Part shown: positions 11,411 to 62,301 of the stretch, in pieces
How positions within the stretch are numbered: the first letter of the stretch is position 1
Layout of the letters: every line of letters begins with the position of its first letter
Origin: Sulfolobales archaeon HS-7
GTDB lineage: Archaea; Thermoproteota; Thermoprotei_A; Sulfolobales; Sulfolobaceae
Assembly (NCBI GenBank): GCA_019704295.1
Contig: AP024596.1
Coordinates: forward strand, 192,001 to 256,000
Length of the DNA: 64,000 bases
Reading direction: 5' to 3'
Made by a program: the position numbers and the translations under genes
The notes under the pieces: model-generated
What the model was told of the DNA's origin: nothing
The model's database searches: none
The model's input: the letters and a program-made list of their open reading frames with translations, nothing else

Positions 11411-12557
11411 TTGGGCTTAATTAGTGAATTTTTTTTGAGGAAATCATAAACGAGTTCAAGAATGTAATTGCGAAGGAATTCTAAGATTTTAATTTCCTTA
11501 AACGGAATTAACGTTAGTTAAGCTGTGGACCCATACTTTACGCTACCCGCTGATCTTTCCCACTATTAGGTTAATATTCCACTTCTTAGCCATCTCCTCA
11601 AGTTCCCTATAGGTTTTTTTCCTCGTGGTCATAATTATAAGGTACTTTGCCGGTTCTTTCCCATACTTTCTCCTAAATACCTCAGCCTTCCTTAATATCT
11701 TGTTAATTTCGTCAGTAGATTGCGTAAATGAAGTAACTTCACCAATTATTGGGGGATCCTCGCTGAAAACGTCAATCTCCTCACCTTCTATTATAGTCGA
11801 GGTCAAAGATTTATCTTTTGGTAATATTTTCATATCCTTTAGGTAATTTTCGAGAAATCTTCTCACGAATTCTTCGAAAGTCATTCCGGCAAACTGGGAT
11901 AAGTCGGTAAATCCCTTTAACATAGCTCCGAACATTCTATCTACTTTTTTATCTAGCCTCTTGTAGGAGAGTTTCAGCTCTTTTACTTCATTCAAAAGTT
12001 TGTTGAAGTCCTCCCTAAGCTTTACCTGTTCTTGGGCTAACCTAGTCTGTTCCTCAGATAACTTCTGGAAGTCCTCCCTAAGCTTTACCTGTTCTTGGGC
12101 TAACCTAGTCTGTTCCTCAGATAACTTCTGGAAGTCCTCCCTGAGCTTTACCTGTTCTTGGTAAAGTTTGTTGAAGTCCTCCCTGAGCTTTACCTGTTCT
12201 TGGGCTAACCTAGTCTGTTCCTCAGATAGCCTTTGAATGTCCTGTCTATATATTTTAAGCTCTCTAGATATTTCCGTTAATGTAACGTTCTCTATGAGCT
12301 TTTTCAGCTTATCAGCTAGTTCGGGATTCTCCGTTATCTCAGCAATTAGCCTCTCAGTAAGAGAGCCTGAACTCATTAATTATAATTAAGTCGTTTACGC
12401 GTTATTAACTTAACTTTCTGTGGGATTTCTTGAACTTGTTTAGGAAAAAATCCCTAATTTTCTGTTAGTTGAATATAAATTTCGTCATTATTAATAAAAC
12501 CGTCAGAAACGTACAGTACCTAACCGATATCGATAAACTACTCTTCATCTCTTATCT
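11411..12557 (-). repeat. Copy 1 (1147 bp) of duplicated coiled-coil nuclease unit; inverted partner 61092-62301
   Basis: Flanks and non-repeat coding sequence identical to copy 2; copy 2 has 63 extra bp in the heptad array. Confidence 0.95.
11543..12376 (-). CDS. Heptad-repeat coiled-coil protein with C-terminal PD-(D/E)XK nuclease-like domain
   Basis: 11 heptads (LSEEQT/RLAQEQV/KLREDF); G.TFEE..., EEIDVF...IIGEVT restriction-like fold motifs. Confidence 0.8.
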   Translation of the reverse strand: MSSGSLTERLIAEITENPELADKLKKLIENVTLTEISRELKIYRQDIQRLSEEQTRLAQEQVKLREDFNKLYQEQVKLREDFQKLSEEQTRLAQEQVKLREDFQKLSEEQTRLAQEQVKLREDFNKLLNEVKELKLSYKRLDKKVDRMFGAMLKGFTDLSQFAGMTFEEFVRRFLENYLKDMKILPKDKSLTSTIIEGEEIDVFSEDPPIIGEVTSFTQSTDEINKILRKAEVFRRKYGKEPAKYLIIMTTRKKTYRELEEMAKKWNINLIVGKISG

Positions 12558-12813
12558 GTACAAGGAGCACTAAGCCTGTGAAAGTAATCAGTGTTCAATC
12601 ATAAGTCTAATTCTGTAAGGCCTTCGCTTAACTAGTTTATACCTTATCAGAACATAAAAACCAAGGTGATTGGTTTGTATAATAACAATAACTTCCGATA
12701 CTATCATTCCCAGTATTCCAAAGAGTTAGGCATGTTATGCGTTGCCCTATGAGAGATCCTTGCTTGAACATCAAGGTCTGACTAAGTATAATGTTATCTC
12801 GGTAATCGTTCAT

Positions 12814-13881
12814 TTATTTCATAAGAGAATCTAAGGCCGTACCTATAACAGGGTCGGCTAACTCATAATTTCCCTTATCGCTCTTGATGACGTATCCTCT
12901 CTTCTCCAGGTTATTCAGGTATCTCCCTAGTTCAGCGTCAAATATTGTCCTCCTCCTCTTATCTTCGAAGTATCTCTTTATTTCGCTCCACCTCCTATAT
13001 CCCTTAGCTATGGCCTCAACTACTACGATGTATTCCCTGGAGAAATGGCTCAATTCCTCAACCGTAGTTTTCATCGCAAGTTCCAGGATATCGTCCACAA
13101 AGGTCTTCCTAACTTCCTTAGTTCTTAAACACCGAAGCCCGAACTCCGTCAGCCACCCTACAACACCGTCAAGTTTCTCCACAGCAAACTCTAGGACGTC
13201 CTTTGGGGGGGTTATTCCGATCTGTTCGAAACCCTTCTCTAGGAAATCCAAAGAACGTGACGAATCAAATTTGTTTACTCTTACCTCCTCTAAGTGTCTC
13301 CCGTAGAGGGGAGAGGAGGGGTCCTCAACCTTTAGAAAATCGTACAATAGTCCTATCTCAGAGCCGGTTAAGATGAAGGTCACATTCTTACAGTAATCGT
13401 AACAGTGGGCTAGAAGGGAGAGCATCTCCTGGCCTAACTTTCCTCTGAGGTTTTGAGCCTCATCAAAGGCTATGATCACCCTACTTTCCTCATTTATCCT
13501 GTCCAAGATCTGAGTAAGTGAAGCTCTTTCGTTAGGATCCCAGGATAGGGAAACGTTAACTTCAAATACCGAAATTCCTCTGATGTGCTTAAGGATGGAT
13601 CTAATGGGTAATCTCCTATTTAGCTGCGATAGTACCTCCGAAAATATTGTATAGATTGCCCTATAAGAGGAGAGCGGAAGTCTTCCGTCTACTAGTGCGT
13701 GAGGTAAATCGATGTCATTTAGGAAAGCCTTCAGGATTGAGGTCTTGCCTACTCTCCTTATACCGGTAAGAAGAACTATGGGTTCTGACATAGCTGAACT
13801 TAGCGAGTTAAGTTCCTCTTCCCTATCGTACAACTGCTCCCTAGTTTCCTTTGGTCGTCCATCAAAGAAAATAACTAACAC
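12814..13881 (-). CDS. Archaeal AAA+/STAND-like ATPase with C-terminal wHTH
   Basis: LYDREEEL, Walker A GIRRVGKTS, Walker B IAFDEAQ, LTGSEIG, SPLYGR, C-terminal YLNNLEKRGYV..YELADP. Confidence 0.88.
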   Translation of the reverse strand: MLVIFFDGRPKETREQLYDREEELNSLSSAMSEPIVLLTGIRRVGKTSILKAFLNDIDLPHALVDGRLPLSSYRAIYTIFSEVLSQLNRRLPIRSILKHIRGISVFEVNVSLSWDPNERASLTQILDRINEESRVIIAFDEAQNLRGKLGQEMLSLLAHCYDYCKNVTFILTGSEIGLLYDFLKVEDPSSPLYGRHLEEVRVNKFDSSRSLDFLEKGFEQIGITPPKDVLEFAVEKLDGVVGWLTEFGLRCLRTKEVRKTFVDDILELAMKTTVEELSHFSREYIVVVEAIAKGYRRWSEIKRYFEDKRRRTIFDAELGRYLNNLEKRGYVIKSDKGNYELADPVIGTALDSLMK

Positions 13882-13908
13882 CCTGTTAGTATACTAACAC
13901 CCTGTTAG
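13874..13908. promoter_or_regulatory. Tandem palindromic operator (CTAACA-CCC-TGTTAG x2) between the TATA box and start of the ATPase gene
   Basis: ACTAACACCCTGTTAG at 13874-13889 and 13893-13908; minus-strand CTTAAAT box immediately upstream. Confidence 0.6.
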
Positions 13909-14243
13909 ATTTAAGGTTTCTCATTCAGTCGTCCTGTGTTCATCATGAGATAACATATAGCCCTTAGGATACCATCCTTAGCGCGAATGAATACGATACA
14001 TCTCAAATGGAGATCAATGAATTACTTCAATCCATTGGGGGGTTCGGGAAATACCATTGACGAGAGCAATGTATAGGAACAACTGAAATTTAATATTAAA
14101 TAATTAATAATTAATTTAAAGCGACTTCAATTCAATTGATTGCTAATATCCCACAATCCACGTTTATATTGCATACTATGCAGAATTTGCATTAATAGAA
14201 AGATTAAAATACGTTTAATCATAGATATTAATTAAGTGAGAAT

Positions 14244-14477
14244 ATGAGCCTTAAGATATATAAAAAATTAGATCTTACAGGGGTTTCTTGTGCCGGACCT
14301 CTGGGAGAGCTATCGGGAACTTTTGATGAACTACAGCCTGGGGAGGCTGTAGAAGTTCTATTAGGGGACGAAGCGACCCGAAATGACATTTTGGTGTGGT
14401 CGAAAAAGCGAGGAGCTAAGATTGTAGAGGATTCGAAAGAGGGGAATAGGTACAGATTAGTAATACAGAGGCTGTAA
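14244..14477 (+). CDS. tusA: TusA/SirA-family sulfur carrier
   Basis: [11 protein letters not shown] (variant of the CPxP motif), GEAVEVL..D; 77 aa. Confidence 0.85.
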
Positions 14478-14479
14478 AG

Positions 14480-15634
14480 ATGAAAAGGGTAATTATAGCA
14501 GGAGGAGGAATAGCAGGAACGATTTTGGCTAACAGACTCTCTGACAAGCTAGCTGCTGAACTAAAGAAAGGGGAAATCGAGCTAGTAGTTTTAGACAGAA
14601 CGGACAAACACGTTTATCAGCCTGGACAACTCTTTGTAAGCCTGGGATTGTCAGAGCCTGAGGAGATTGTTAGGAATGAAAGGGAACTATTGAATCCTCA
14701 CGTGAAATTCTTCACAGGTACATCAGGAGAGATGACGAAGATAGATGTAGCTAATCATCAGGTATTAACAGCTGACGGAAAGGCTCACTCATATGATTAC
14801 TTGGTGATTGCCACCGGATCCCATAACAACTACGACGAAATACCCGGTCTGAAGGAGGCCGAATTCACGCCCTGGGATCTAGAGAGTGCAGTAAAGATGA
14901 GGGAAGTGGTCCAAAACTTCAATGGAGGAACGGTAGTAATAAACGTTGCTAGAACTCCGCACAAATGTCCAGTAGGACCTTTAGAGCTTACGTTTATGTT
15001 TGAGGATATGGTGAGGAGGAGAGGGATAAGGGATAAAACCGAGATTATTTACACTTATCCCGTTCAGGGGGTTTTCGGCATACCCAGTACGAATCAGGTG
15101 ATGCTAAAGATTTTCGAGGAACGGGGGATAAAAGTGGTGTCTCCTTTCAAGGTCGCAAAGGTAGATCCGAAGGAGAAGGTGATCGAATCGGATGACGGAC
15201 AAAAGCTGAAATTCGACTACCTCTTCGGAGTACCACCTAACGTGGGAGCTAAGGTGATAAAGGACTCTGGTATAGGAGACAGAAGTAACTGGGTTCCAAC
15301 GGATAAGTACACCTTAAGAATGGAGAATCAGAGCAACGTTTACGTCATGGGAGATACGACAAACCTTCCCATATCTAAGGCGGGTTCAACAGCGGACTTC
15401 GAGTCCTATGTGATCACGGGAAATTTAGTTAATGACATAAGGGGAACAGGGAGTAAAAGGATGTTTGACGGCTCGGTATTTTGTTACATAGCTACCGGAC
15501 TTGACCAGGCGACTTACATAAGGTTCAACTATAATTACCCTCCGGTACCACCTCCTCCCTCCTACGTGCATTGGTGGGGCAAGATAATGTATAACAGGAT
15601 GTACTGGACGGTTACTGCGAAGGGAATAGTATGA
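14480..15634 (+). CDS. sqr: Sulfide:quinone oxidoreductase-like flavoprotein (short, type III-like)
   Basis: [27 protein letters not shown] (catalytic Cys), GDT...SKAGS, FCYIATG (second Cys). Confidence 0.8.
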
Positions 15635-16002
15635 GACATGGATTGATAGTGGGCACTAACGACAAAAGCAGGTTAGTCTACGCAAGTATGGAGGCTGTAG
15701 TAAGAACGTCATTGGGAGATGAGGTGTCTATCTTTTTCACGATGGATGGAGTAAAAGCTATTACAAGGAATCCTGAAACGGTAACTAAGAACGATTCGTC
15801 GAAATACCTCGAGAGTTCGAACGAGTTTTACGAGAACCTAAGTAAGACTAAGAAGACGGGAAGGGCTAAGGTGTATGCTTGTTCGTATGCGTCTAAACTT
15901 TACGGATTTTCTAAAGAGTCGTATTCGGATCTCGTTGACGCCATTGTTGGAATTACGACATTCATAGGCGAAGTGGACGGACAGATAGTATCGATCTGGT
16001 GA
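15631..16002 (+). CDS. DsrE/DsrF-like sulfurtransferase
   Basis: [25 protein letters not shown] motifs; in operon with tusA and sqr. Confidence 0.8.
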
Positions 16003-16910
16003 TAAAAGTGGAACAGATTAACTTGGACACGATCTTAAACAAGCTTGATCAGAAAAAACTGGATGACATAGCATCAATGTTAGATAGATTAGGTACTCTA
16101 AACGACGTTCTTTCGCGACTTGAGGAGCTTAAACAGTCGGGAGCGTTTGACGTGTTAATTAACACCTCCTATGCTCTCAAAACGATGAGGGATATGCTTA
16201 ACGATGACGCTATACAGAACGTAGCAGGAATGACAAGTACTATAATGGAGGTATTGAAGACCGCTTCAGATCAAGAGGTCAAGGACAGGCTAATTTCTGT
16301 CCTTAAGGGATTGGAAGGAATTGAAATGTTAACTAACAAGCTAAGGGAATTAACCTCCTCTGGCGCACTGGATGTCCTGGTTAACATGTCGTATGCGCTT
16401 AAGACGTTAAAGGACATGTTAAATGATGACGCGATACAGAACATTGCATCCTATACTTCCTCTCTTCTAGAATTACTTAAGGTGATGGACGACAGAACGA
16501 TAAGTTCTATGAAGAACGTCATAGTGAAGTTTAACACACTAGAAAAGGTAGTTTCAAAGTTAGAGGAGTTGGACAAAAGTGGAACATTGGATACGCTGAT
16601 GGAAATGGGATATCTAGTAAAGACCATGCGAGATATGCTAAACGAGGATTCTCTAGTCAACCTTGCGACGACGCTATCGACTGCCCTGGAATTCCTTAAA
16701 GGCGGTAAGGATTTCCTTGATCTATTTAATAGTAGCCTTGGTAGGGTAGTTGCCGAAGTAGCAGCTTCAGACGAAATGAGAAAGGTTATTGACAACCCCA
16801 CTCCTTACAACCTATCGAGGATTATAAAGGCGCTGGGAGATCCTGACGTTCAGAAGGGAGTTGGAATAATGATGACGTACCTGAAACTACTGGGTCAAAG
16901 GGAGAGTTAA
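15999..16910 (+). CDS. DUF1641-domain protein with three internal helical repeats
   Basis: C-terminal LSRIIKALGDPDVQKGVG; three ~74-aa repeats SG(A/T)(F/L)D..LKT(M/L)(R/K)DMLN(D/E)D. Confidence 0.8.
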   Translation: MIKVEQINLDTILNKLDQKKLDDIASMLDRLGTLNDVLSRLEELKQSGAFDVLINTSYALKTMRDMLNDDAIQNVAGMTSTIMEVLKTASDQEVKDRLISVLKGLEGIEMLTNKLRELTSSGALDVLVNMSYALKTLKDMLNDDAIQNIASYTSSLLELLKVMDDRTISSMKNVIVKFNTLEKVVSKLEELDKSGTLDTLMEMGYLVKTMRDMLNEDSLVNLATTLSTALEFLKGGKDFLDLFNSSLGRVVAEVAASDEMRKVIDNPTPYNLSRIIKALGDPDVQKGVGIMMTYLKLLGQRES

Positions 16911-16911
16911 A

Positions 16912-17475
16912 TTAAATTTTTTTGCAATCTATTGACGCTTCCTTGAAAAGGAGTTTTAAAAGAGGATCAGGGATATTCGCCTCCTCCCTGTAATTTTCGT
17001 GGAGTACTAGTATTTTCGCAGTAGAAGGAGATGCGCTGCTTATATCGAAGAAGAGATATTGGACTGTAGAGAATTCCTCTCCTTGTTCTCTTCCCTTCTC
17101 TGGAACTCCTTGTATAAGCTTGTCTCCTATTTTAAGGAAAATTGAGTTGTATATTCCCCTTAAGGTTCTGAAAACCTCCTTAAGGTCGGCTTCATTCCAA
17201 GCGTTAATAAATAGAGTTGCCTTGATTAAGTTATTACATGGAATCATGGTTGAGTAGAGCTCAATCTCCCTCTTTATGTCATCTTCTTTTTCAAGCTTGT
17301 CTAAGTAGATCATTTCCTGTATTTGATGTATGACGGTTTCTTTGTTTTCGAAGAGCAACGTTAGCCTCTTTCCAAGTTCGAATCTCCTATCCCTCTTTAT
17401 CTCCGCTATTTGCTTATACCTTTCCATCCTGACTTTTTCATAGTCTTTCCAATTCATGAATTGTGAAGGATCCAT
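16912..17475 (-). CDS. DUF3501 family protein
   Basis: RRFELG..LTLLFEN.ETV.HQIQEM, ATLFI, STVQYLFF; typical rubrerythrin-cluster position. Confidence 0.85.
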   Translation of the reverse strand: MDPSQFMNWKDYEKVRMERYKQIAEIKRDRRFELGKRLTLLFENKETVIHQIQEMIYLDKLEKEDDIKREIELYSTMIPCNNLIKATLFINAWNEADLKEVFRTLRGIYNSIFLKIGDKLIQGVPEKGREQGEEFSTVQYLFFDISSASPSTAKILVLHENYREEANIPDPLLKLLFKEASIDCKKI

Positions 17476-18669
17476 TTATAATGCCTCCTTAAGGAGGGAT
17501 ATGGGATGCTTTGGCTTTACTCCTGTGGCTTTAGTGATCTGCATACCCGCTAGCGGACATTCCGTAACGAAGACGTCGGCCTTACCATCTTTAAATGCGT
17601 CCATCATTCCCTTACCAACCCTCTTTGCAGTATCGTAATGTCTCAACCCCCAACCTCCATCTATTCCTGAACAACCCTTATCGACTCTTTCCACCTCAAC
17701 TTTAACTCCTCTTAGTAACTGCACTCCTGGCTGACCTACCCCTAAGTACCTGAGGTGACATGGTGGGTGATATAGGGCTTTAAGAGGTTTCTCACCCTTT
17801 ATGTTTACTTTCCCCTCCTTTTTTAGCTTCAGGAGAAACTCCATTGCGTCGTAGACCTTAGGTACGTCCTTAAGTAGGTGCGAGTACTCTTTGGTAACCA
17901 TTAGGGTACACGTAGGTATGGGACACACCACATCGTAGCCTTTGTTAACGAATTCCCTAATTAACTTGGCGTTGTGCTCTGCATTCCTCTTCAATCCCCA
18001 TGCATTTCCAGAGTCCAAAAAAGGCGCCCCGCAACATTTGAAGTTAGCGGCAACTACCTTTATTCCCAGTTTAGTGTAAACCTCTACGAGGTCTTTTCCT
18101 ATCTCGGGAAAGAAGTTCTCAACAAGACATGTATGGAAGAGAACGACTTTAGCCACCGGATTACTCACGTCATTCTCCCTGAACTCCTCGAGGAAACCCC
18201 TCTCCGATATTTCCAGTTGCGGAGCATCCTCTTGTACGCCCGCGTAACCTGAAAGGACCTTATAGGCTTCCCTCCCTACTTTACCTAACTTCCTGATGAG
18301 TGGTATTCCGTCAGTTAACGACATTAAGGACTCTTTTAGGGGGACGCCTTTCACAGTTCTAAAGTAAAGCCATCCCCACTCTAAGATCCTGGGGAAATCC
18401 ATGCTAAACTCATGAGGTGGTGTATATGGACAATTTACAAAGCACATATTGCAGTGAAAGCACTTTGAGGCTACTTCCTCCACATCCTCGAGAGTTAACG
18501 CCCCTGGACCCTTTTCGTCCGTTTTTTTGAATAGGGTTGGAAAAGAGTCGCAGTAGTTAAAACACCTTCTGCATCCATGACAAACTGTGGATTGCCTAAC
18601 GAACTCCTTCAATAGTGATTTACTATCATAAAATCTAGGGTTGTCAGGATCTAAAATCATGATTATCAC
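17476..18669 (-). CDS. Fe-S oxidoreductase (4Fe-4S dicluster + two CCG domains), rubrerythrin-associated
   Basis: CHGCRRCFNYC, CFHCNMCFVNCP, CCGAP, CSGIDG, TECPLA. Confidence 0.88.
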   Translation of the reverse strand: MIIMILDPDNPRFYDSKSLLKEFVRQSTVCHGCRRCFNYCDSFPTLFKKTDEKGPGALTLEDVEEVASKCFHCNMCFVNCPYTPPHEFSMDFPRILEWGWLYFRTVKGVPLKESLMSLTDGIPLIRKLGKVGREAYKVLSGYAGVQEDAPQLEISERGFLEEFRENDVSNPVAKVVLFHTCLVENFFPEIGKDLVEVYTKLGIKVVAANFKCCGAPFLDSGNAWGLKRNAEHNAKLIREFVNKGYDVVCPIPTCTLMVTKEYSHLLKDVPKVYDAMEFLLKLKKEGKVNIKGEKPLKALYHPPCHLRYLGVGQPGVQLLRGVKVEVERVDKGCSGIDGGWGLRHYDTAKRVGKGMMDAFKDGKADVFVTECPLAGMQITKATGVKPKHPISLLKEAL

Positions 18670-18687
18670 AGAAAAAGAGGAAAAAAT

Positions 18688-19116
18688 TTATCCCTTTAGT
18701 TCCTTAAGAAGTTGTTCGAACTTAGCTGCGTGACTCTTTTCGGCTTTGGCTAAAGTCTCATACCACTCCGCTAGTTCAGTGAAGCCCTCCTCTCTAGCGT
18801 CCTTGGCAAACCCAGGATACATCTGAGTCCACTCGTAAGTTTCGCCCTCTATTGCGGACTTTATCATATCCTCTAAAGTGTTTATCTTAACGCCTGTGGC
18901 GGGATCTCCCATATTCCCCTGTCTTACGAAATCGAGATGACCGAACGCGTGAGCTGTCTCCCCTTCAGCTATACTCCTTATTGTAGCAGCTATTTCTGGG
19001 TACCCTTCTTCGTCTGCTCTCCTTGCAAAGTAGAGGTATCTCCTGTTAGCCATGGACTCCCCTATAAAAGCGTTTTTCAAGTTCGTTTCCGATTTAGTAC
19101 CTTTTAACTCCTTCAT
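18688..19116 (-). CDS. rbr: Rubrerythrin lacking rubredoxin domain (sulerythrin-type)
   Basis: AFIGESMANRRY, EGETAHA, GETYEWTQMYP, AEKSHA di-iron ligands. Confidence 0.93.
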   Translation of the reverse strand: MKELKGTKSETNLKNAFIGESMANRRYLYFARRADEEGYPEIAATIRSIAEGETAHAFGHLDFVRQGNMGDPATGVKINTLEDMIKSAIEGETYEWTQMYPGFAKDAREEGFTELAEWYETLAKAEKSHAAKFEQLLKELKG

Positions 19117-19189
19117 GGTTATCTGAGATATTGATCCTCTACTTAAATAAAAACTTTTTCTTAGTATGAACTCCTTACTTGTAGTAATT

Positions 19190-20215
19190 TCAAAAAACGG
19201 GCAACGTTACGTTTTCGTGAGTTCTTACGTAGGATGTGTTTACGTATCTGGGAAAAGTTCCATTAAGTATTCCCCTGATCATGGCAATTGCGTAAACTGA
19301 TAACGGACCCGGCTCGTTAAGCAGACTCGCTGGCAACCCCTCCGACATAACGTATATCTTATATTGATAGCTGTTTCCTAGGAAACCTTCTATAGTATTT
19401 ACTACGCCCGTAACATTCGAAAAGTCCTGAGCTATTATTACTCCCGGTTGAAGGGATAGTAGCGTCGCACCTGACTCTACAGGATAGGCAGTAGTTACGT
19501 TCTGGTATACGTTTACTCCTCCAGCATCGCTAATAATGACGGAGATGAAGGAATTTCCAGAGACGGTGTAGAAAGTGTTACCAGGTTCCCAACAAAGCAC
19601 GTAAGCCACTTTTACGTTGCCGTGAGTTGAAAAAGCACTTATCTTACTCTCCATCCAATTGATTAGGAGCTGAGCCTGATGTTCCTTATTGAACACCTTT
19701 CCTACTAACTCTATATCCGAGAAAATTTCCGAAAAGTTGTTGTCTAGGCTTCCATGAAGGTAAAGGACAGGTAATCCAGCCTCTACGAAGTCCTTATAGT
19801 AACCTCCTTCAATTCCCGCGTCTGCTATGATCAGAGAGGGATGATATTTTTCGAGTAGAGCAGCGTCGAGAGTAGGATACGTGACGTTGGCTGGAAGAAT
19901 TGTTACGTTACTTGGGAGTAAAGAGGTCTCATTTACCTGTTCTAGCAGTTGATAGGAGTAATAGTCTATCGCGACTAGATCCTTTGTAAGATTCAAAGCT
20001 ATTAGTATCTGCGTTACACTAGGTGCAAGGGATATTACTCTGGTAGGATAAGCCGGAATCGTAACGTTGTTTCCGAGGCCGTCGACGACAGTTAGCGGGT
20101 AATAGTTGACTGACTTTGATAAGTGAGTATGTGAGGTGAAATAGTACCCGGCAAATATACTCGCTGCGATAATTATTACTGCAAGTGCTATCCCGATAAC
20201 AACGGTGGATTTCAT
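19190..20215 (-). CDS. ABC transporter substrate-binding protein, BtuF/Fe-siderophore family
   Basis: N-terminal TM; VDGLGNNVTIPAYPTRVISLAPSVTQIL; SFISVIISDAGGVN; EPGP. Confidence 0.85.
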   Translation of the reverse strand: MKSTVVIGIALAVIIIAASIFAGYYFTSHTHLSKSVNYYPLTVVDGLGNNVTIPAYPTRVISLAPSVTQILIALNLTKDLVAIDYYSYQLLEQVNETSLLPSNVTILPANVTYPTLDAALLEKYHPSLIIADAGIEGGYYKDFVEAGLPVLYLHGSLDNNFSEIFSDIELVGKVFNKEHQAQLLINWMESKISAFSTHGNVKVAYVLCWEPGNTFYTVSGNSFISVIISDAGGVNVYQNVTTAYPVESGATLLSLQPGVIIAQDFSNVTGVVNTIEGFLGNSYQYKIYVMSEGLPASLLNEPGPLSVYAIAMIRGILNGTFPRYVNTSYVRTHENVTLPVF

Positions 20216-20218
20216 AGA

Positions 20219-20234
20219 TGGATAGGCTATCCAA
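20219..20234. promoter_or_regulatory. Palindromic operator TGGATAGGCTATCCAA upstream of the binding-protein gene
   Basis: Nearly identical to 21841-21857; lies 3 nt upstream of the start codon. Confidence 0.65.
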
Positions 20235-20237
20235 GCC

Positions 20238-20903
20238 TTAAAAAATTACCGGTACGTAGTATTTGATCGAGCTAAGCGTGATTTCAGTAATGGGTATGGA
20301 AAACGCCTCTGACAATATTTCGGAATTTACATTCTGACCATGATAGAACACTTTTCCCTCCTTAAGCACGGTTACTGTAGAGGCAAAAGATACTATACCT
20401 AGGTCGTGAGTGGCCACAACTACTTGCCTGTTAGAGGATAATTGGAGGACTCTGGTAGCTACGACGTGTCTGTTCAACGGATCCAAGTTTGCCGTTGGTT
20501 CATCTAATAACAGGATCTTGTTCGTAAGAAGGGCTTTCGCTATTAGTACTAGGCGTTTTTCCCCGGAACTCAAAGTGGGGAAACTTCTGTATGCTAACTT
20601 AGCTATGCCCATTTCCCTGAGTGCCTCAAGGGCCTGCTTTATCTCATCTTCCTTTGGGAAAAACCACGCGTCCTTAGCCAGGAGGATCTTCATTACTGAA
20701 CTCTTAAAATCGGGCACCTCAGCAGGTATGTAAACCGCATCTAATAGCTTAGGGTGTTTTGGAAGGAGTCCCGCGAGTGCCTTGAGTAGAGTCGTTTTTC
20801 CAGCACCATTAGGTCCTACTATTACGTTTAATCCATCACTTAACTTCAATTTAACTCCTGAAAGTATAGGAGAACCTCCGATTTCAACACTCACTTCAAT
20901 CAA
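20238..20903 (-). CDS. ABC transporter ATP-binding protein (FecE/BtuD-like)
   Basis: GPNGAGKTT, LSSGE, LLLDEPT, THD. Confidence 0.9.
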   Translation of the reverse strand: MIEVSVEIGGSPILSGVKLKLSDGLNVIVGPNGAGKTTLLKALAGLLPKHPKLLDAVYIPAEVPDFKSSVMKILLAKDAWFFPKEDEIKQALEALREMGIAKLAYRSFPTLSSGEKRLVLIAKALLTNKILLLDEPTANLDPLNRHVVATRVLQLSSNRQVVVATHDLGIVSFASTVTVLKEGKVFYHGQNVNSEILSEAFSIPITEITLSSIKYYVPVIF

Positions 20904-21834: not shown

Positions 21835-21840
21835 TACTAC

Positions 21841-21857
21841 TTGGATAGGTTATCCAA
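21841..21857. promoter_or_regulatory. Palindromic operator TTGGATAGGTTATCCAA upstream of the permease gene
   Basis: TTGGATA-N3-TATCCAA, 6 nt upstream of ATG; duplicated at 20219. Confidence 0.65.
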
Positions 21858-46761: not shown

Positions 46762-46764
46762 AGT

Positions 46765-53069: not shown

Positions 53070-55064
53070 TTACTTCCTAACCTGCTCCTTGAACTCGTGA
53101 AGAGCTTTCTTTACTTCCTCTACTGAAGCTTCATCCTCTAACGTTGTTACATCTCCTACTGGAGAATCCGTAGCTACCGACTTTATTACCCTCCTCATTA
53201 TCTTTCCGCTCCTCGTCTTGGGTAGTTTATTTACGAAGTGAATCTCCTTAAATACTGCGATTGGACTGTAGTTTTCCCTTACAAAGTTAATAAGTTCCTT
53301 ACTAAGCTCCTCGCTTGGTTCGACATTGGATCTCAAGATAATGAATGCTTCAGCAACTTCCCCTCTCACTTGATCAGGAACTCCTACAACTGCTGCCTCG
53401 GCTACGGCTGGATGTTGAATTAAGGCAGATTCCAGTTCGTAAGTCCCGATTCTATGTCCCGCGATCTTTAGCACTTCGTCAGCTCGTCCTAGTATCCAAA
53501 AGTAACCGTCCTGATCCTTTATAGCGTAATCCCCAGCATAGAATGAGTTAGGATATTTACTCCAATACACCTTAACATACCTCTCAGGGTCCTTATTAAT
53601 AGTAAGCGGCATTCCAGGCCAGGGTTTAGTGATCACCAAATATCCTTTCTTTCCCTCTGGCACTGGTTTACCCACCTCATCGAAGACGTTTGCCTCAATT
53701 CCGAAGAGCGGCGGACCGTTGGTGCCCGGCTTCATTGAAACTAGGTAGCTACCTGGTGCATGTGAAATCATGATGCCTCCTGTCTCAGTCATCCACCACG
53801 TGCTTCCAAACGGAGCTTTACCCCTCCCGACCAGCTTGTGGAACCATCTCCAAGCTTCTGGATTTATTGGCTCTCCGACAGAGTGTATGAGCCTTATACT
53901 GGTTACATCGTGTTTCGTGATCCACTTTTCTCCCTGCTTCATAAAGGTCCTTATCGCCGTTGGTGAGGTATATAGGATAGAAACCTGGTGTCTCTCCACT
54001 ATTGAAACCCATCTGTCTGGTTCTGGATAGTCCATAGCACCCTCGTACATAACTTCTGTAGCTCCTTCCTGAAGGGGACCGAATACTATGTAAGAGTGCC
54101 CAGTAACCCACCCAATATCAGCGGTGCACCAGAAGATATCGTCGTCCCTAACATCGAACACATGCTTCATCGTAGAGTGTAAAAGCGTCAAATATCCACC
54201 TGTATCATGCACAATTCCCTTGGGCTTTCCCGTTGTTCCAGAGGTGTAAAGTATATAGAGGGGACTTTCGCTTTTCATTCTCTCTGGTTCCACATACGCG
54301 TTCCCCGGAACTTCGGACATTACATCATGAAGGTAAGCATCTCTATCTTGCTTCATACTTATTTCGGTACCTGTTCTCTTAACTACCAGAACTTTCTTGA
54401 CGGTTTTTGCGGATTCGAGCGCTCTATCAACCACCTCCTTTAACGGAACTACTTTCCCTCTCCTCCATCCTCCATCTGCGGTGACTATGAGTTTTGCATC
54501 GGCATCGTTCATCCTATCTGCAACCGCTTGGGAACTGAATCCGGAGAAGACGACCGTAAATACGACGCCTATCCTTGCTGCGGCTAGCATAAAAATGGGT
54601 AACTCAGGTATCATTGGCAAGTAGATCCCTATTGTATCTCCTCTCTTAAGACCGTAGATCTCCTTTAGCAAATGGGCTACTCGATTTACTTCCCTGTATA
54701 AGTCAAGATAGGTAAATTTTCTCACTTCTTTAGGCCCGTTTTCCCAGGGTTCTCCCTCCCATATTATCGCTACTTTATTTCTTCTCCAAGAGTTCGCATG
54801 TCTATCTACGGTTAGGTATGAGGCATTAAGCTCGCCTCCTACAAACCACTTGTAAAATGGCGGATCCGAGTCGTCAAGAGTTTTTTCCCACGGTTTAAAC
54901 CAATCTAGTTCCTTTGCTATTGATTCCCAGTACTCCCTGCTGTTTTCAATAGTCATCCTATGTATTCTCATATACTCCTCAGGTGAAACTAGACGGTGCC
55001 TAAGGAGTTCGGGAATTATTTTATCTTGAAAAGGCAGATTAGACGGATTTTCCATATAAGACAT
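53070..55064 (-). CDS. acs: Acetyl-CoA synthetase
   Basis: YTSGTTGKPKG, CTADIGWVTGHSY, VGEPINPEAW, TWWMTETG, PKTRSGKIMRR. Confidence 0.92.
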   Translation of the reverse strand: MSYMENPSNLPFQDKIIPELLRHRLVSPEEYMRIHRMTIENSREYWESIAKELDWFKPWEKTLDDSDPPFYKWFVGGELNASYLTVDRHANSWRRNKVAIIWEGEPWENGPKEVRKFTYLDLYREVNRVAHLLKEIYGLKRGDTIGIYLPMIPELPIFMLAAARIGVVFTVVFSGFSSQAVADRMNDADAKLIVTADGGWRRGKVVPLKEVVDRALESAKTVKKVLVVKRTGTEISMKQDRDAYLHDVMSEVPGNAYVEPERMKSESPLYILYTSGTTGKPKGIVHDTGGYLTLLHSTMKHVFDVRDDDIFWCTADIGWVTGHSYIVFGPLQEGATEVMYEGAMDYPEPDRWVSIVERHQVSILYTSPTAIRTFMKQGEKWITKHDVTSIRLIHSVGEPINPEAWRWFHKLVGRGKAPFGSTWWMTETGGIMISHAPGSYLVSMKPGTNGPPLFGIEANVFDEVGKPVPEGKKGYLVITKPWPGMPLTINKDPERYVKVYWSKYPNSFYAGDYAIKDQDGYFWILGRADEVLKIAGHRIGTYELESALIQHPAVAEAAVVGVPDQVRGEVAEAFIILRSNVEPSEELSKELINFVRENYSPIAVFKEIHFVNKLPKTRSGKIMRRVIKSVATDSPVGDVTTLEDEASVEEVKKALHEFKEQVRK

Positions 55065-55397
55065 ATATCTTAAAAATTAATACTATAAACCTAACGTAAC
55101 AGCGTAGTCTAGAGAGGATCGAATATAATCCTTTTCTTATGGACATCCTCATCTTCCGATATCCCCTCTGAAGTGGAAACATAAAGAATTAGAATACGTG
55201 AAATACTTAAACTAGGAAAAGTAATTAGACACGAAAGAGTACACCCATAAATCCCAACACCTCAGCCTGCTTAAGCGGACTTAAACCATGTTCTAAACTG
55301 AAGCAAAGATGAGAAAGATCACGGTAAATTCTGATAAGGGAATTTTCAATCAACTGCTATTGATTATTCACTCAAAATGTTATTTATCAATACCTTC

Positions 55398-55558
55398 GGG
55401 CCGTTCACGCTCTCATTGAGAATTGTAATTTATGGGAAAGTGTAATAAAATACAGTAAATTGCTAAGTTTAAATCCCGACAGTTACTGCAGTAGTATTGA
55501 ATTAGATTTGTCATAGTTATTGAAAGTAACTGAATTCAAAAGGAGACGTGAATAGCCC
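55398..55558 (+). mobile_element. 161-bp MITE (subtype A), copy M11
   Basis: GGGCCGTTCACGC...GACGTGAATAGCCC; closest to M3; no TSD retained. Confidence 0.85.
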
Positions 55559-55690
55559 AAAAGTATAGTCGTTATTCTGCATGCGGTAGACATTACCTTG
55601 AGAGAGTCTAATATTACTACATGAAAAAGAATAGGGCTACTAACAAACGTTAAGCGTTTTATCATTAAAGCGAAATTACTCTAGATAGTC

Positions 55691-55972
55691 TTGAGAAGAA
55701 TTAGTTACGAATTATTTGTAAATTATGGGAGGAGCGTGGGAGCTGTAACAGAGAGAGATAACCGCATAGAGATAACCTTTACTCCACCTACAGTTTCAGA
55801 TGCTGCAGAGACAGGGGATGTAGATGAGGTGCCCCCAGTTTACGTAATCGTAGCGGAGAGGAAGGGAGATGAGGTGGAGGTACAAGAAGTTAAGATCGAG
55901 TCTGAAAAGGGGAAACGTTACCTTACAGCGGAGGAAATAGAATTCTGGGTTGAGTCGGTATTTAGAGAGTAA
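55691..55972 (+). CDS. Hypothetical acidic protein
   Basis: 93 aa, TTG start, co-oriented just upstream of mscS. Confidence 0.6.
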   Translation: MRRISYELFVNYGRSVGAVTERDNRIEITFTPPTVSDAAETGDVDEVPPVYVIVAERKGDEVEVQEVKIESEKGKRYLTAEEIEFWVESVFRE

Positions 55973-56001
55973 TTTATTTTATGTAAAAACACATCTATTC
56001 T

Positions 56002-56904
56002 ATGAAGCGCTCTACTAGCTACATCGTGGCTCTTTCCCTTACGATAATTATAGCTTTCATCCTACTTGGATTAGCCGTCTACACATTAGTAGGTCTCAAA
56101 GTGTTACCAGTATCAGACTCGATAATTTTCTACGCTGTGATTATTGCAGGTGGGGGCACTGTAATTACGCTATTTCTCTCATCAATGATGAAAAGGCTTT
56201 CTGACGTTGTGGGTGAGGCCAATTCCAGTGTTCTGCAGTTTTTAGTAAGGCTATTAGGTTTCATAATAACGGCTGTTGCCCTACTTTCTCTGTTTAAGGT
56301 AAGTGCGGACTTAGCTTATTTCGGAGGGACAGCTATAGGACTTATTCTCGGATTAGCTTCACAGGACGTCCTTTCTAATATATTTGGGGGCTTAGTAATT
56401 CTATTCTCTAGACCATTTAAGGTAGGGGACAGGGTCACAATTTCCACATGGCAGTACGGTCTTCTTGCACCTACCTATCAACCGAAGTTTTGGTCAAATG
56501 ATTTCCTTATTCCCGGATATACCGGAAGAATTACCGAAATAGCACTAATGTATACCACCGTTATAACTGACGAGAATATCCCGCTAAAGATACCTAACAG
56601 CATCATGGTTCAGGCTGCGGTTTTCATTCACGGTGCAAATGAACATAGAGTGGTGCGCACCAAATATGAAATTCCTAAAGACATAGAACCTGATCTGGCG
56701 ATCTCCGAACTTAAGAGGGAACTCTCTAAATTAGATGTATTTGCAAGGGAACCTGAAATAAGGATATTAGATACTACGCTTAACACCTACGTTATTGTAA
56801 TTGAGGCATTGTGTAAAGGGGAATTTGAAGAGCCTCCACGAAGTGAAATAATTAAAATCGTAATGAGAACTGTGAGACAGTTACAGCTGGCTAAACAACG
56901 CTAA
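56002..56904 (+). CDS. mscS: Small-conductance mechanosensitive channel
   Basis: GLILGLASQDVLSNIFGG..SRPFKVGDRV, GRITEI.LMYT, IPNS. Confidence 0.9.
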   Translation: MKRSTSYIVALSLTIIIAFILLGLAVYTLVGLKVLPVSDSIIFYAVIIAGGGTVITLFLSSMMKRLSDVVGEANSSVLQFLVRLLGFIITAVALLSLFKVSADLAYFGGTAIGLILGLASQDVLSNIFGGLVILFSRPFKVGDRVTISTWQYGLLAPTYQPKFWSNDFLIPGYTGRITEIALMYTTVITDENIPLKIPNSIMVQAAVFIHGANEHRVVRTKYEIPKDIEPDLAISELKRELSKLDVFAREPEIRILDTTLNTYVIVIEALCKGEFEEPPRSEIIKIVMRTVRQLQLAKQR

Positions 56905-56934
56905 CCTTTTTTCCTATTCAGAAGAAGGACGAAT

Positions 56935-57948
56935 ATGGTAACGGTAATTCTCGGAGGGGGTTTCGCAGGAGTATCGGCGAAACTGAGATGTAGAGAGTGC
57001 GTACTAGTTGATAAGAGTGACTATTTCATCAATACTAGTAAACTGGTTGATGTCGTGGAAGGTAAAAACCCAGAATACTGTAAGATAAAGAGAAGGGCTG
57101 ACATCCAAGCGGAAGTGATCTCTGTTAACTACAGGGAGAGGAAAATAGTCATAAGTGAGGGACAGTTGCATTACGATAAATTAATTGTAGCTCTGGGATA
57201 CGTCCAAGACGTCTCCAGGATTAAGGGGGCAGAGAAGTTCGGGTACAGACTGTCAACAATGGAGGAAGCAATGAAACTTAGGGAGTTAAACAGGAAGGAT
57301 AAAACCGCAGTTATCATTGGTGGAGGTTCCCTTGGAGTTGAGCTAGCAGGAGTATGGAAGGGGAAAGTTAAGATCGTAGAAGGAGGAAAGGGATTAGTAT
57401 CATTCCTTGGTAGCGAAGTTTCAAAATACGCTGAGAAGAAATTAACGGAGAGCGGAGGTGAGGTGATAGTGGATGCACAGGTAGAGGAGGTTAAGGAAAG
57501 GGAGTTAGTAACTAGTCAGGGAACAATTCCTTATGACGTGTTAATCATTACAATAGGGATTTCTCCAAGTCCATTAATTAAAAATTCAGGGTTTCAGAAC
57601 AAGGGCGGTAGGATGTTAGTCGATAAATACCTTAGATCGATTGACGACGAGAACGTATTTGGAGTTGGTGATTGTGCCGTCGGAAACGATTACTTCTGGC
57701 CGATGTCTGCACAAATAGCGTTACAATCCGGTGAGATCGCTGCCCAAAACATTATGGGAAAGAATATCGAATTTACACCAAAACAAGAAGCGGTGGTTCT
57801 AAGGATTGGCCAAGAATACTTTGGGACTTTTAGAGGGAAGTTCGTTCAAGGTAAAACTGCATCTCTACTCAAACATTTAGCGATTATTAACAGCAACTTC
57901 AGGGCTTCCCTTTCCAACTTCACGCAGTTAACTGCACCTGTGACATAA
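56935..57948 (+). CDS. Type II NADH dehydrogenase-like FAD oxidoreductase
   Basis: [44 protein letters not shown]. Confidence 0.82.
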
Positions 57949-58834
57949 GTTCTTTAAACGTCTTGTGAAAGTCCCTCAATGCAGCGTTAAAGCTCTCTCT
58001 ATCTTTTTCACTTAGGGTTGATTCGAGTGTAGGTCCGATAGATGCCCCAACAACGGTTGGAATTCCAACGTGAATCATCTCTCCCTCGAACTCGTTGGGA
58101 ACAGCTATACTCATCACTCTATTCTCGTTCTTAACTACAGACCTCACTATGTCCTTTATTATAGTTGCCGGTCCCCACGTCGTACCCTTCAATACCCTTA
58201 TTATTTCCGCCGGTATCTTCTTAACATACTCCTCGACTTCTTTCTTATCTATGTTATATTGTTCGATAGGTTTTCCTTTTACTGTTACAGTACTCCAAAA
58301 GATCACCGCGTCCTCTCCGTGTTCGCCCCCTACAAAACCATTAACTTGTGTAACTGGAACTTTCAGCTTCTTAGCTATATAGGACCTCATTCTCATTGTC
58401 TCGACTTGATCCCCAGTACTGATCGTAAATTGTTTTGAGTACTTCTGAAATACAGAGGCCATCATGTCCACCGGATTTGTCACCATTATGTAAAGCGCTC
58501 CGGGATTCCTGTTAGGTAGTTGCTTGCTTAACTCGAACATCAGCTTTGCATTATCGGCAAATAGATCCCTTCTACTCATACCCTCCTTTCGTGGTTTCCC
58601 TGCTGTGATTACAATTATGTCGTAGTTGTTAATATCGTCTATATTCGTAGTTCCTAGCATTTCAACGTTTAACCCCCTCGTTGTCACGGCATGCCTCATT
58701 TCGTGCTCAAACTTTTCGCCTACCTCAGGTACTATGTCGTAAAATACGGCCTCGTTTGCTAAACCATCCATAACTATAGAGTAAGCAATCGTCTGACCTA
58801 TTTTTCCAACTCCAACAAAGCCTATTTTCGTCAT
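57920..58834 (-). CDS. mdh: Malate dehydrogenase (LDH-like); likely start ATG 58834
   Basis: [31 protein letters not shown]. Confidence 0.88.
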
Positions 58835-58887
58835 GATGAACGTGTAAAACTCCAAAAATATAAACCTAACCGTCCATAGTATCGAAT

Positions 58888-60156
58888 ATGTCTCTAGAAG
58901 AGGAATTAGTTAGCTCGATTGTAAACTTAAAGGACATTGAATTAGAGGAAAAGATCAAGCATGAAATTAGAAGAAGGGTTCTTGACTCCCTAGGAGTAGC
59001 TATTGCATCCTCGTCATCTCCCCCCGCCGAAGCTACTAAAAGGCTAATGAATTATTTTCCTGGTAAGGTATCTACAATTACAGGTGAATTGACAACTGTC
59101 GACTTAGCGGGATTTTACAACACTTTACTAATAAGATACCAGGACTTCAACGATACATACCTATCCAAAGAGCCTTTACATCCAAGTGATATGATAGGAG
59201 GTATTTTAGCAGTTGATAACGCCTTCAGGATAACCGATTTATATAAGGCAATAGCAATAGCCTATGAGGTTGGAGTGAGCCTATGTGATGCGGAGACCCT
59301 TAGAACTAAGGGGTTCGACCACGTCAATTACCTCCAATTAGCCGAGACAGCCGGACTTGGTGTTGCTCTTAACCTGACCGAGGACGAAGTTCGCAACGCA
59401 ATGGCTATTTCCTTGGTCCCTAATGTAGCTTTGAGGGAAACCAGAGTGGGAACTCTCTCTATGTGGAAAGCTGGGGCTGCCGCGGACGCAATAAGGAAAT
59501 CCGTCTTCGCAACGTTGGCTGCCAAGTCAGGTTTTACCGGTCCTGAAAAGTTCCTCTCTGGAAAAATGGGATTCGCCCAACTGGTAAAGGGGGATTATCA
59601 AGAGATAGCGAAAATCAAAGACGTTTCCGGCATAGAGCGTACTCTTATGAAGAAGTACCCTGTGGAATACCACGCGCAAGCAGCTGTTCAAATATCTCTG
59701 AATATCCACAAAAAGGTGAGACCCAGTGATATAAACTCAGTGACAGTAGAGATTTACGAAGCTGGGAAGACGATTCTCGCAGATCCGGAAAAATGGAACC
59801 CTACCACAAAAGAAACAGCAGATCATAGCTTACCGTTTGTTGTAGCCGCTGCTCTTGTAACTGGAGACTTTTGGTTGGATACTTACAACTTAATTTTCGA
59901 TGAGAAGATCAGGGATGTAATGAAAAAGGTTAAGGTTGAGGAGAATTCTGAGTATACTAAAGTATATCCAGGGAAGCTCCCAACAAAAATCGTGGTAAAA
60001 ACTGCGTCAGGAACGACGGAGGAGGAGTTACAAGTTCCTCGCGGTCATTATCTGGATCCCATGTCGGACCAGGAGGTTGCGGACAAATTCTTAAGACTTA
60101 TAGGAAGGAACGATTTGGTTGAGAGGATAATGAAAAGGGGTATTTTAAATGGATAA
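58888..60156 (+). CDS. prpD: 2-methylcitrate dehydratase (MmgE/PrpD)
   Basis: [40 protein letters not shown]. Confidence 0.9.
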
Positions 60157-61006
60157 CCCCATCCTGTTAGAGGAGTTCATGATAATTCCGGGCGTGTTTG
60201 ACCCGTTTACTGCTCTCTTAGCTAAGAGAGAGGGGTTTAAGGCAGTTTACCTCTCAGGTGCGGCTTTAACCTCTTCTCTAGGACTTCCAGACCTTGGGGT
60301 CATCTCTTTATATGAACTAGCTGACGTAGTGAGGAAGATAAGGGAGGTAACTGATATACCGATAATAGTTGATGCAGATACGGGTTTCGGAGAGGCACTT
60401 AACGTTTACAGAACAGTTAGAGTGCTTGAAGCGGCTGGTGCATCAGCAATACAAATAGAGGATCAGGTTAATCCAAAGAGGTGCGGTCATTTGGACGGAA
60501 AGGAGGTAATAATCAAGGATCACATGAGGGAGAAAATAAGGGCTGCGCTAATGGCAAGAAAGAACTGCGCGATCATCGCTAGGACCGACTCAAGAGCTGT
60601 TGAAGGATTTGAGGCCGCAATTGAGAGGGCGAAAAATTACCTTGAGGAGGGGGCAGATATCATATTTCCTGAGGCATTAACATCCGAGGAGGAGTTCAGG
60701 AGTTTCGCCCAGGAAGTTAAAGCCCCTTTGTTAGCTAATATGACGGAATTCGGAAAAACCCCGCTAATTCCAGCGTCAAAATTTAGAGAAATGGGATATA
60801 AATACGTTATATTTCCAGTGACGTTACTAAGAGTTGCAGCGAAGGCAATGATTAAGGCCCTGCGAACACTTAGGGACTATGGTACGCAGGAATCCATAAT
60901 GTCCGACATGATAACTAGAAATGAGCAATATGACATCATTGGCTACCACTTTTATGAGAAGCTTGATAAGGACTTAAGTAAGGGAGATAGACGTCTGGCG
61001 AGATAG
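60149..61006 (+). CDS. prpB: 2-methylisocitrate lyase
   Basis: YLSGA, LPDLG, VDADTGFG, IEDQV.PKRCGH, ARTD, LANMTEFGKTP. Confidence 0.92.
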   Translation: MDNPILLEEFMIIPGVFDPFTALLAKREGFKAVYLSGAALTSSLGLPDLGVISLYELADVVRKIREVTDIPIIVDADTGFGEALNVYRTVRVLEAAGASAIQIEDQVNPKRCGHLDGKEVIIKDHMREKIRAALMARKNCAIIARTDSRAVEGFEAAIERAKNYLEEGADIIFPEALTSEEEFRSFAQEVKAPLLANMTEFGKTPLIPASKFREMGYKYVIFPVTLLRVAAKAMIKALRTLRDYGTQESIMSDMITRNEQYDIIGYHFYEKLDKDLSKGDRRLAR

Positions 61007-61091
61007 CGTTTAACTAGTTAAACGAAGGCCTCACGTAATTAGGGTTATGAACAAACATTGTTTGCTTTCACAGGTTTGAAACTTCTTCTAT

Positions 61092-62301
61092 AGATAAGAG
61101 ATGAAGAGTAGTTTATCGATATCGGTTAGGTACTGTACGTTTCTGACGGTTTTATTAATAATGACGAAATTTATATTCAACTAACAGAAAATTAGGGATT
61201 TTTTCCTAAACAAGTTCAAGAAATCCCACAGAAAGTTAAGTTAATAACGCGTAAACGACTTAATTATAATTAATGAGTTCAGGCTCTCTTACTGAGAGGC
61301 TAATTGCTGAGATAACGGAGAATCCCGAACTAGCTGATAAGCTGAAAAAGCTCATAGAGAACGTTACATTAACGGAAATATCTAGAGAGCTTAAAATATA
61401 TAGACAGGACATTCAAAGGCTATCTGAGGAACAGACTAGGTTAGCCCAAGAACAGGTAAAGCTCAGGGAGGACTTCCAGAAGTTATCTGAGGAACAGACT
61501 AGGTTAGCCCAAGAACAGGTAAAGCTCAGGGAGGACTTCAACAAACTTTACCAAGAACAGGTAAAGCTTAGGGAGGACTTCCAGAAGTTATCTGAGGAAC
61601 AGACTAGGTTAGCCCAAGAACAGGTAAAGCTTAGGGAGGACTTCCAGAAGTTATCTGAGGAACAGACTAGGTTAGCCCAAGAACAGGTAAAGCTTAGGGA
61701 GGACTTCAACAAACTTTTGAATGAAGTAAAAGAGCTGAAACTCTCCTACAAGAGGCTAGATAAAAAAGTAGATAGAATGTTCGGAGCTATGTTAAAGGGA
61801 TTTACCGACTTATCCCAGTTTGCCGGAATGACTTTCGAAGAATTCGTGAGAAGATTTCTCGAAAATTACCTAAAGGATATGAAAATATTACCAAAAGATA
61901 AATCTTTGACCTCGACTATAATAGAAGGTGAGGAGATTGACGTTTTCAGCGAGGATCCCCCAATAATTGGTGAAGTTACTTCATTTACGCAATCTACTGA
62001 CGAAATTAACAAGATATTAAGGAAGGCTGAGGTATTTAGGAGAAAGTATGGGAAAGAACCGGCAAAGTACCTTATAATTATGACCACGAGGAAAAAAACC
62101 TATAGGGAACTTGAGGAGATGGCTAAGAAGTGGAATATTAACCTAATAGTGGGAAAGATCAGCGGGTAGCGTAAAGTATGGGTCCACAGCTTAACTAACG
62201 TTAATTCCGTTTAAGGAAATTAAAATCTTAGAATTCCTTCGCAATTACATTCTTGAACTCGTTTATGATTTCCTCAAAAAAAATTCACTAATTAAGCCCA
62301 A
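61092..62301 (+). repeat. Copy 2 (1210 bp) of duplicated coiled-coil nuclease unit
   Basis: Inverted, essentially identical to 11411-12557 plus three extra heptads. Confidence 0.95.
61273..62169 (+). CDS. Heptad-repeat coiled-coil protein with C-terminal PD-(D/E)XK nuclease-like domain (14 heptads)
   Basis: Same protein as 11543..12376 with a 21-aa insertion. Confidence 0.8.
   Translation: MSSGSLTERLIAEITENPELADKLKKLIENVTLTEISRELKIYRQDIQRLSEEQTRLAQEQVKLREDFQKLSEEQTRLAQEQVKLREDFNKLYQEQVKLREDFQKLSEEQTRLAQEQVKLREDFQKLSEEQTRLAQEQVKLREDFNKLLNEVKELKLSYKRLDKKVDRMFGAMLKGFTDLSQFAGMTFEEFVRRFLENYLKDMKILPKDKSLTSTIIEGEEIDVFSEDPPIIGEVTSFTQSTDEINKILRKAEVFRRKYGKEPAKYLIIMTTRKKTYRELEEMAKKWNINLIVGKISG

Follow-up and report, generated by a model that had tools for sequence, protein, structure and literature searches.

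Three aspects of the DUF1626 family of endonuclease-fold proteins have been covered in earlier work: the change of the motif III lysine to threonine, the Lys/Arg patch on the next helix and the topology of the fold (Knizewski et al. 2007, PMC1913061). The coiled-coil stalks found in the same endonuclease family have been discussed (Hartmann et al. 2016, PMC4786415), and the family has been listed as having an unknown function and a patchy distribution (Steczkiewicz et al. 2012, PMC3424549). A gene of this kind, encoding a heptad-repeat coiled coil followed by a PD-(D/E)XK fold, occurs twice in the 64,000-nt stretch of the genome of Sulfolobales archaeon HS-7 analysed here (the window, positions 192,001 to 256,000 of contig AP024596.1, corresponding to C1:192001-256000 of a single-contig genome of 2,151,177 bp). 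The two copies, at ~0.20 and 0.25 Mb of the genome, are inverted relative to each other. They are quite probably old paralogs that arose by segmental duplication and were later homogenised over their middle part by ectopic gene conversion, and do not constitute a mobile element.

The near-identical tracts at the two loci (Table 1) are reverse complements of each other, as found both by a repeat search of the window (I1, 833 nt at 99%; I2, 486 nt at 94%) and by MAFFT alignment. The initial annotation had reported an inverted, near-identical pair ~49 kb apart with 181 bp of 5' flank and 132 bp of 3' flank identical, and an ungapped outward walk from the gene returned the same lengths, 181 nt 5' of the ATG and 132 nt 3' of the stop codon. 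The copies differ only in an indel of three heptads (63 nt) and in a single base (CTC/CTT), both within the heptad array; removal of any single 63-nt stretch never makes the copies equal, the best case leaving one mismatch. BLAST placed copies in the whole genome at these two loci only, and the pair is one of a handful of genomic repeats of at least 300 nt at 98% identity or more in a whole-genome repeat listing.

The sequences that adjoin the identical tract are considerably older. On the 5' side, the next 80 nt match at 60 of 80 positions without gaps, and a dispersed-repeat coverage map shows this stretch nowhere else in the genome. On the 3' side, the border of the identical tract coincides with the edge of MITE B, a miniature inverted-repeat transposable element (MITE), with a 2-nt (AA/TT) ambiguity. 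The terminus of MITE B is aligned in register in 34 other copies, beyond which the flanks are unrelated. MITE C, which lies beyond the diverged 5' stretch at locus 1, has both termini intact, and 11-15 other genomic copies share both in register (family size ~12-17); it is a simple insertion that entered the locus 1 copy at a later time. When MITE C is taken out, the match between locus 1 and locus 2 resumes at 11/16 (17/28) positions, compared with offset-control maxima of 9/16 (80 controls) and 15/28. When MITE B is taken out, 14/19 positions match locus 2, compared with an offset-control maximum of 10/19 and a mean of 4.9. These short extensions are visible only by in-register comparison after the MITE termini have been defined: plain local alignment of the flanks finds only a shared 27-nt subterminal segment of MITE A, and local alignment of both loci finds no homology further out than the extensions themselves.

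Thus the identical tract, with its abrupt borders, lies within older homology (~69-75%) that extends on both sides. The contrast between one substitution, inside the repeat array, over ~1150 nt and ~25% divergence in the adjacent flanks implies two different ages, a pattern for which non-allelic gene conversion is the usual explanation. Gene conversion, one of the options raised when the pair was first described, is well supported by a tract that lies within older homology and ends at the MITE B heterology. Two other features of that description are not: the ends are not sharp, since the 5' border runs into the 60/80 match and the 3' border looks sharp only because MITE B sits there, and copy 1 does not cut into a decayed pseudogene, none having been found. 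With the exception of 10478-10777, the locus 1 flanks consist mostly of dispersed MITE copies on the coverage map.

The 3' end of the tract can also be judged from locus 2, where a MITE-like remnant, D, begins shortly after the gene. D aligns at 67-68% identity with genome positions 1434960-1435280 and 1910790-1911100, and both alignments cross the 62301/62302 border unbroken. Because D is continuous across the border in these two other genomic copies, the 3' end of the tract falls inside D and does not mark where a unit ends. At its far end D carries a ~27-40-nt subterminal segment common to MITE family A, the extreme end being decayed here. D is intact at locus 2, whereas locus 1 has a truncated form. 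Two candidate element termini were considered and set aside. An inverted repeat of 17/19 positions (61204-61222 versus 62250-62268) is real and mildly unusual, being reached in 3 of 500 shuffles, but its right arm belongs to D. An 11-nt direct repeat, ACTARTTAAGC, occurs at the ends of the homologous unit as a pair that is unique in the genome; its 3' copy falls within D but is missing from the other copies of D, and the repeat was taken as chance.

Table 1. Features of the two loci in the window (positions numbered from the first nucleotide of the window).
Feature	Position	Strand	Description and evidence
Identical (putatively converted) tract, locus 1	11411..12557	-	1147 nt; repeat search, alignment, ungapped walk
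Identical (putatively converted) tract, locus 2	61092..62301	+	1210 nt; 181 nt upstream + gene + 132 nt downstream; ungapped walk
Copy 1, coiled-coil + PD-(D/E)XK-fold gene	11543..12376	-	277 aa, 11 heptad modules; open reading frame (ORF)
Copy 2, coiled-coil + PD-(D/E)XK-fold gene	61273..62169	+	298 aa, 14 heptad modules; ORF, AlphaFold2, structure matches, PADLOC C3a181
Old diverged 5' homology, locus 1	12558..12637	-	60/80 to 61012-61091
Old diverged 5' homology, locus 2	61012..61091	+	weaker match reaches ~60996, in the last codons of prpB
Old diverged 3' homology beyond MITE B	11276..11294	-	pairs with 62302-62320
MITE B	~11295..11412	.	~118 nt; conserved terminus ...GTAGYGCCTT; in locus 1 3' flank
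MITE C	12640..12790	.	~150 nt; terminal inverted repeats (TIRs) TACTTTGTCAGACC; probable TA target duplication
MITE-like remnant D	62187..62451	+	starts 18 nt past the copy 2 stop codon; first ~115 nt inside the tract
MITE A	10778..11153	.	~375 nt; TIRs GTGTCCAATGTG; 25-67 genomic copies; in locus 1 3' flank
MITE E	11207..11274	.	dispersed repeat; in locus 1 3' flank
prpB (methylisocitrate lyase)	60149..61006	+	left neighbour of copy 2
Citrate/methylcitrate synthase (CS)	62714..63847	-	inverted, with the CBS gene, relative to prpB
CBS-domain gene	63847..64272	as CS block	runs past the end of the window
Archaeal ATPase (PF01637)	12814..13881	-	upstream neighbour of copy 1; C-terminal MCM_C-type winged helix
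HEPN / nucleotidyltransferase (MNT) pair	9843..10477	-	downstream of copy 1

A history in four steps may be proposed for the pair. Long ago, a ~1.3-kb segment of the prp locus, which began in the final codons of prpB, took in the coiled-coil/PD-(D/E)XK gene and ended ~135 nt into D, would have been copied, inverted, to a position immediately downstream of the archaeal ATPase gene. This duplication most likely ran from locus 2 to locus 1, to judge from the state of D at the two loci and from the apparent inclusion of the last codons of prpB, a functional, conserved gene at locus 2 but non-coding at locus 1. As the sequences show, the non-coding flanks then drifted to ~69-75% identity, after which MITEs C and B entered the flanks of locus 1. 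More recently, a non-allelic conversion of 1.15-1.21 kb would have copied one paralog onto the other, with one endpoint within homology 181 nt 5' of the ATG and the other at the MITE B heterology, where strand exchange would have been blocked. Finally, the heptad array was altered by whole modules, through slippage or unequal exchange. An old duplication, two MITE insertions and a recent conversion tract can thus be placed in order from sequence alone in a thermoacidophilic archaeon, and a candidate mobile element gives way to a well-resolved case of ectopic gene conversion in which a MITE insertion marks the border of the tract.

Several points weigh against this history. The homology past the MITEs is short (16-28 nt on one side, 19 nt on the other), and each extension alone is only moderately significant. 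No close relative that might supply an allele without either copy was found in genome or metagenome collections (best protein identity ~53%). The pattern left by classical conversion would also be left by one-ended break-induced copying, a variant of the proposed mechanism in which a break at the MITE B end of locus 1, caused for instance by a transposase, is repaired by invasion of the locus 2 paralog, with synthesis towards the break, joining at the MITE end by 2-nt microhomology, and locus 1 as the recipient. Such copying would account for a tract that stops at the intact MITE B terminus with a 2-nt overlap, for a 5' endpoint within homology, and for the truncation of D at locus 1. However, the old homology directly past MITE B fits a simple earlier insertion of MITE B that blocked the tract, chance alone would give an overlap of 2 nt, and no active transposase of family B was identified; one-ended copying is accordingly rather unlikely, and conversion between old paralogs that ended at a pre-existing MITE B is preferred.

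The initial annotation had viewed the pair as a new mobile or self-copying unit, or as the outcome of homing-like spread, while remarking that it saw neither a transposase nor a target-site duplication (TSD). The remark holds and the proposal does not. There is no TSD, direct repeat or common flank at the junctions of the two loci, and no transposase was found among the ORFs of either. The two copies do not share two defined ends, the 5' border lying in continuing homology and the 3' border in D. MITEs B and C are absent from copy 2 and therefore did not carry the gene. Recent multiplication is not evident either: there are two copies in this genome, and relatives have diverged single genes or old paralogs. 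Homologues in 40 relatives and 80 metagenome loci lie in unrelated contexts, and none was found to belong to a near-identical multicopy set; no integrase or transposase neighbours recur in the 80 metagenome loci, and no homologues were found in viral contigs.

Nothing indicates that the protein drives its own copying. It is very unlikely that the PD-(D/E)XK protein provokes breaks in or near its own paralog, as a form of selfish, homing-like concerted evolution without fixed ends; if it did, crossovers in the same events would invert the 48.5-kb segment, and the population would contain two isomers of the chromosome. Also very unlikely is a nuclease-driven unit whose protein cuts target sites or its own paralog, the gene then being copied by repair. 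Two near-identical nuclease-fold genes in unrelated contexts, the absence of the gene from the prpB-CS interval of all sampled relatives, the patchy phylogenetic distribution of the family (Steczkiewicz et al. 2012, PMC3424549) and the 17/19 inverted repeat that flanks the gene could all be cited in favour of such a unit. Yet beyond the small copy number, the tract ends that are not element ends, the lack of a TSD or shared target sequence and the assignment of the right arm of the 17/19 repeat to D, the paralogs elsewhere are diverged, the 80 metagenome loci have no conserved mobile-element neighbours, the motif III lysine is replaced by threonine, and about half of the family has asparagine at the aspartate position. 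An assembly artefact in which one real copy was placed twice is scarcely credible for a single 2.15-Mb contig in which a 63-nt module and a single base distinguish the copies and each has unique flanks, independently diverged homology and locus-specific MITE insertions.

As the initial annotation proposed, the 1.2-kb inverted repeat may plausibly flip the 48.5 kb of chromosome that lies between its copies, and such an inversion should be kept in mind when strains of the species are compared or assembled.

The encoded protein belongs, as a divergent member, to the known DUF3782 + DUF1626/PDDEXK_10 family (PF12644 + PF07788, COG5493, C3a181). Direct Pfam and NCBIfam scans gave coiled-coil noise and a weak DUF234 match, hmmscan gave no direct match to PF07788 or PF12644 at E <= 0.1, and a sequence search of the PDB gave coiled-coil noise and a weak profile match to EndoMS. 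The family is reached through relatives: hhalign of the subfamily against relatives that include P0080 gave a probability of 99.9% (E 6e-36) with an alignment that runs through the nuclease domain, and P0080 itself scores above the cut-off for both PF12644 (51.5 bits) and PF07788 (34.8 bits). The PADLOC HMM for C3a181 also matches, with an E-value of 1.4e-27. An unannotated gene is thereby placed in the DUF1626/PDDEXK_10 family, whose function is still unknown after almost 20 years.

A PD-(D/E)XK nuclease domain had been assigned to the C terminus when the gene was first noticed, and the fold predicted by AlphaFold2, together with structure comparison, agrees with that assignment. The model of the C-terminal 159 aa (pLDDT 87) consists of a helix (49-63), three strands (74-78, 81-87 and 92-100), a helix (104-120), a strand (125-134), a helix (135-147) and a final strand (150-158). 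Its closest structural matches are NucS (Z 9.6, root-mean-square deviation 2.8 A over 101 residues), AF1548 (8.6), NucC (8.2), and Can2 and Card1 (7.4); the top matches are all PD-(D/E)XK nucleases, with many restriction enzymes also matched, and the Foldseek probability is 0.98-1.00. Conservation across 63 sequences is nearly complete at E189 (62/63) and E234 (61/63), whereas position 223 is divided between Asp (32) and Asn (29); position 236 is Thr in 53, Ser in 7 and Lys in 2, while K247 and K251 are conserved in 49 and 55 sequences, respectively. The predicted active site thus consists of E189 (motif I), D223 (motif II) and E234-x-T236 (motif III), with Lys247/Lys251 on the following helix; this pattern and the topology of the model agree with those published for DUF1626 (Knizewski et al. 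2007, PMC1913061). The protein is most likely a metal-dependent nuclease or a DNA-binding protein.

The closest homologues, at 44-53% identity, belong to Marsarchaeota, Tardisphaera, Bathyarchaeia, Korarchaeia and Nezhaarchaeales; among 24 sampled genomes of the same family, a single one encodes a close homologue (46%). A scan of a collection of genome contigs found two distant matches only. The HS-7 genome itself has two distant paralogs, at C1:345160-346173 (-) and C1:368678-369559 (+), with 25-29% identity and scores above the DUF3782 threshold. The Marsarchaeota-type homologues P0002, P0003, P0004, P0005 and P0008 are near-identical to one another, and their number of LREDF-type heptad modules accounts for almost all the difference between them (281-372 aa). 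Variation in heptad number among near-identical homologues implies that polymorphism in stalk length is general in the family.

The C3a181 cluster (Tpen_1359) was published with three members, a score of 25.55 and the label "diadenylate cyclase" (Shah et al. 2019, PMC6546367). The corresponding PADLOC label of PDLC01085 (C3a181), "Diadenylate cyclase", is unsuited to a coiled coil + PD-(D/E)XK protein, and probably stems from a coiled-coil-driven match in the source study. Neither copy is adjacent to type III cas genes: the Cas10/Cmr2 homologues are located at 1.365 and 1.461 Mb of the genome, more than 1.1 Mb from both copies.

Copy 2 lies between prpB and citrate synthase, as originally stated. 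Orthologs of prpB, with ~70-74% identity, are found in relatives within a prpD-prpB-(CBS)-CS cluster. Wherever CS was detected in a sampled relative, prpD, prpB and CS share one strand, and three complete relatives have a small CBS-domain gene between prpB and CS. No sampled genome of the same family with a prpB ortholog has the coiled-coil gene between prpB and CS. The inversion of the [CBS, CS] block in the present genome is unique among those sampled, and the coiled-coil gene and D fill its left breakpoint. A search for inverted repeats at both breakpoints of this inversion gave none. Recombination between the two copies of the coiled-coil gene was considered as its cause and rejected: undoing a 48.5-kb flip would not restore the ancestral prpB-CBS-CS order, and the CBS-CS rearrangement is therefore a separate event. 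The nearest genomes belong to other genera (prpB ~72% identical), and synteny with them breaks down within a few genes.

At locus 1, the ATPase encoded upstream of copy 1 has its MCM_C-type winged helix in place of the usual DUF234, and weakly matches PADLOC PDC-S27 and PDC-S01. A linkage between the ATPase and nuclease genes was considered and discarded, the two being unlinked in other genomes. The 80 metagenome loci have no conserved neighbour beyond lineage-specific synteny; HEPN genes are present in five of them and AAA_14/DUF4143 ATPases in three. Operons of DUF1626, HEPN and MNT genes have been described (Anantharaman et al. 2013, PMC3710099), and the HEPN genes and ATPases at these few loci echo both those operons and the HEPN/MNT pair and ATPase of locus 1. 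Rfam and tRNA scans found no credible RNA genes at either locus.

Old MITE families, at 70-90% identity, are abundant throughout the genome; they include one family of ~60 copies represented at 9125-9275 of the window, and family B with ~35 copies. At ~95.7-96.0 kb of the genome, a copy of MITE B is nested within a copy of MITE C. Also within the window, a 200-nt perfect or near-perfect inverted repeat (7515-7714 / 9290-9489) surrounds a MITE-gene-MITE cassette; its left arm holds the start of the gene at 7008..7583, and both arms stop abruptly rather than passing into diverged homology. Elsewhere in the genome there are two further inverted pairs, each of ~1 kb and sharing 99.7-99.8% identity (C1:773214-774256 / 958239-959281 and C1:1275461-1276418 / 1636071-1637028); together with a 1.4-kb family of three copies, they make up all the remaining long near-identical repeats of the genome.

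Compared with systems already described, the pair in the window represents an ordinary outcome of ectopic recombination, which took place between old paralogs of a genome rich in MITEs, and would not surprise a specialist. It resembles homing endonuclease genes and MITE-flanked composite cassettes in the two identical copies of its nuclease-fold gene and in the MITEs on either side of copy 1, but it differs from them in having no conserved element ends, target site or TSD. The C3a181 accessory genes of type III CRISPR systems have a published association with cas cassettes that is not shared here. The C-terminal domain of NucS/EndoMS (PDB 2vld, 5gke) and AF1548 (1y88) are the best structural matches to the encoded protein, whereas sequence identity is ~10%, the N-terminal domain of NucS is missing, and the lysine of the catalytic E-x-K is a threonine. 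With the DUF3782 + DUF1626/PDDEXK_10 nucleases it shares an N-terminal heptad coiled coil of variable length and a C-terminal restriction-endonuclease fold, although it forms a divergent subfamily without a direct Pfam match. As for the history of the two copies, bacterial tufA/tufB or rRNA operons and short-patch conversion in Sulfolobus likewise show an abrupt block of identity within older homology; here the copies are inverted, one endpoint lies at an insertion heterology, and, in contrast to those cases, the gene is an accessory one and the border of the tract is set by a MITE.

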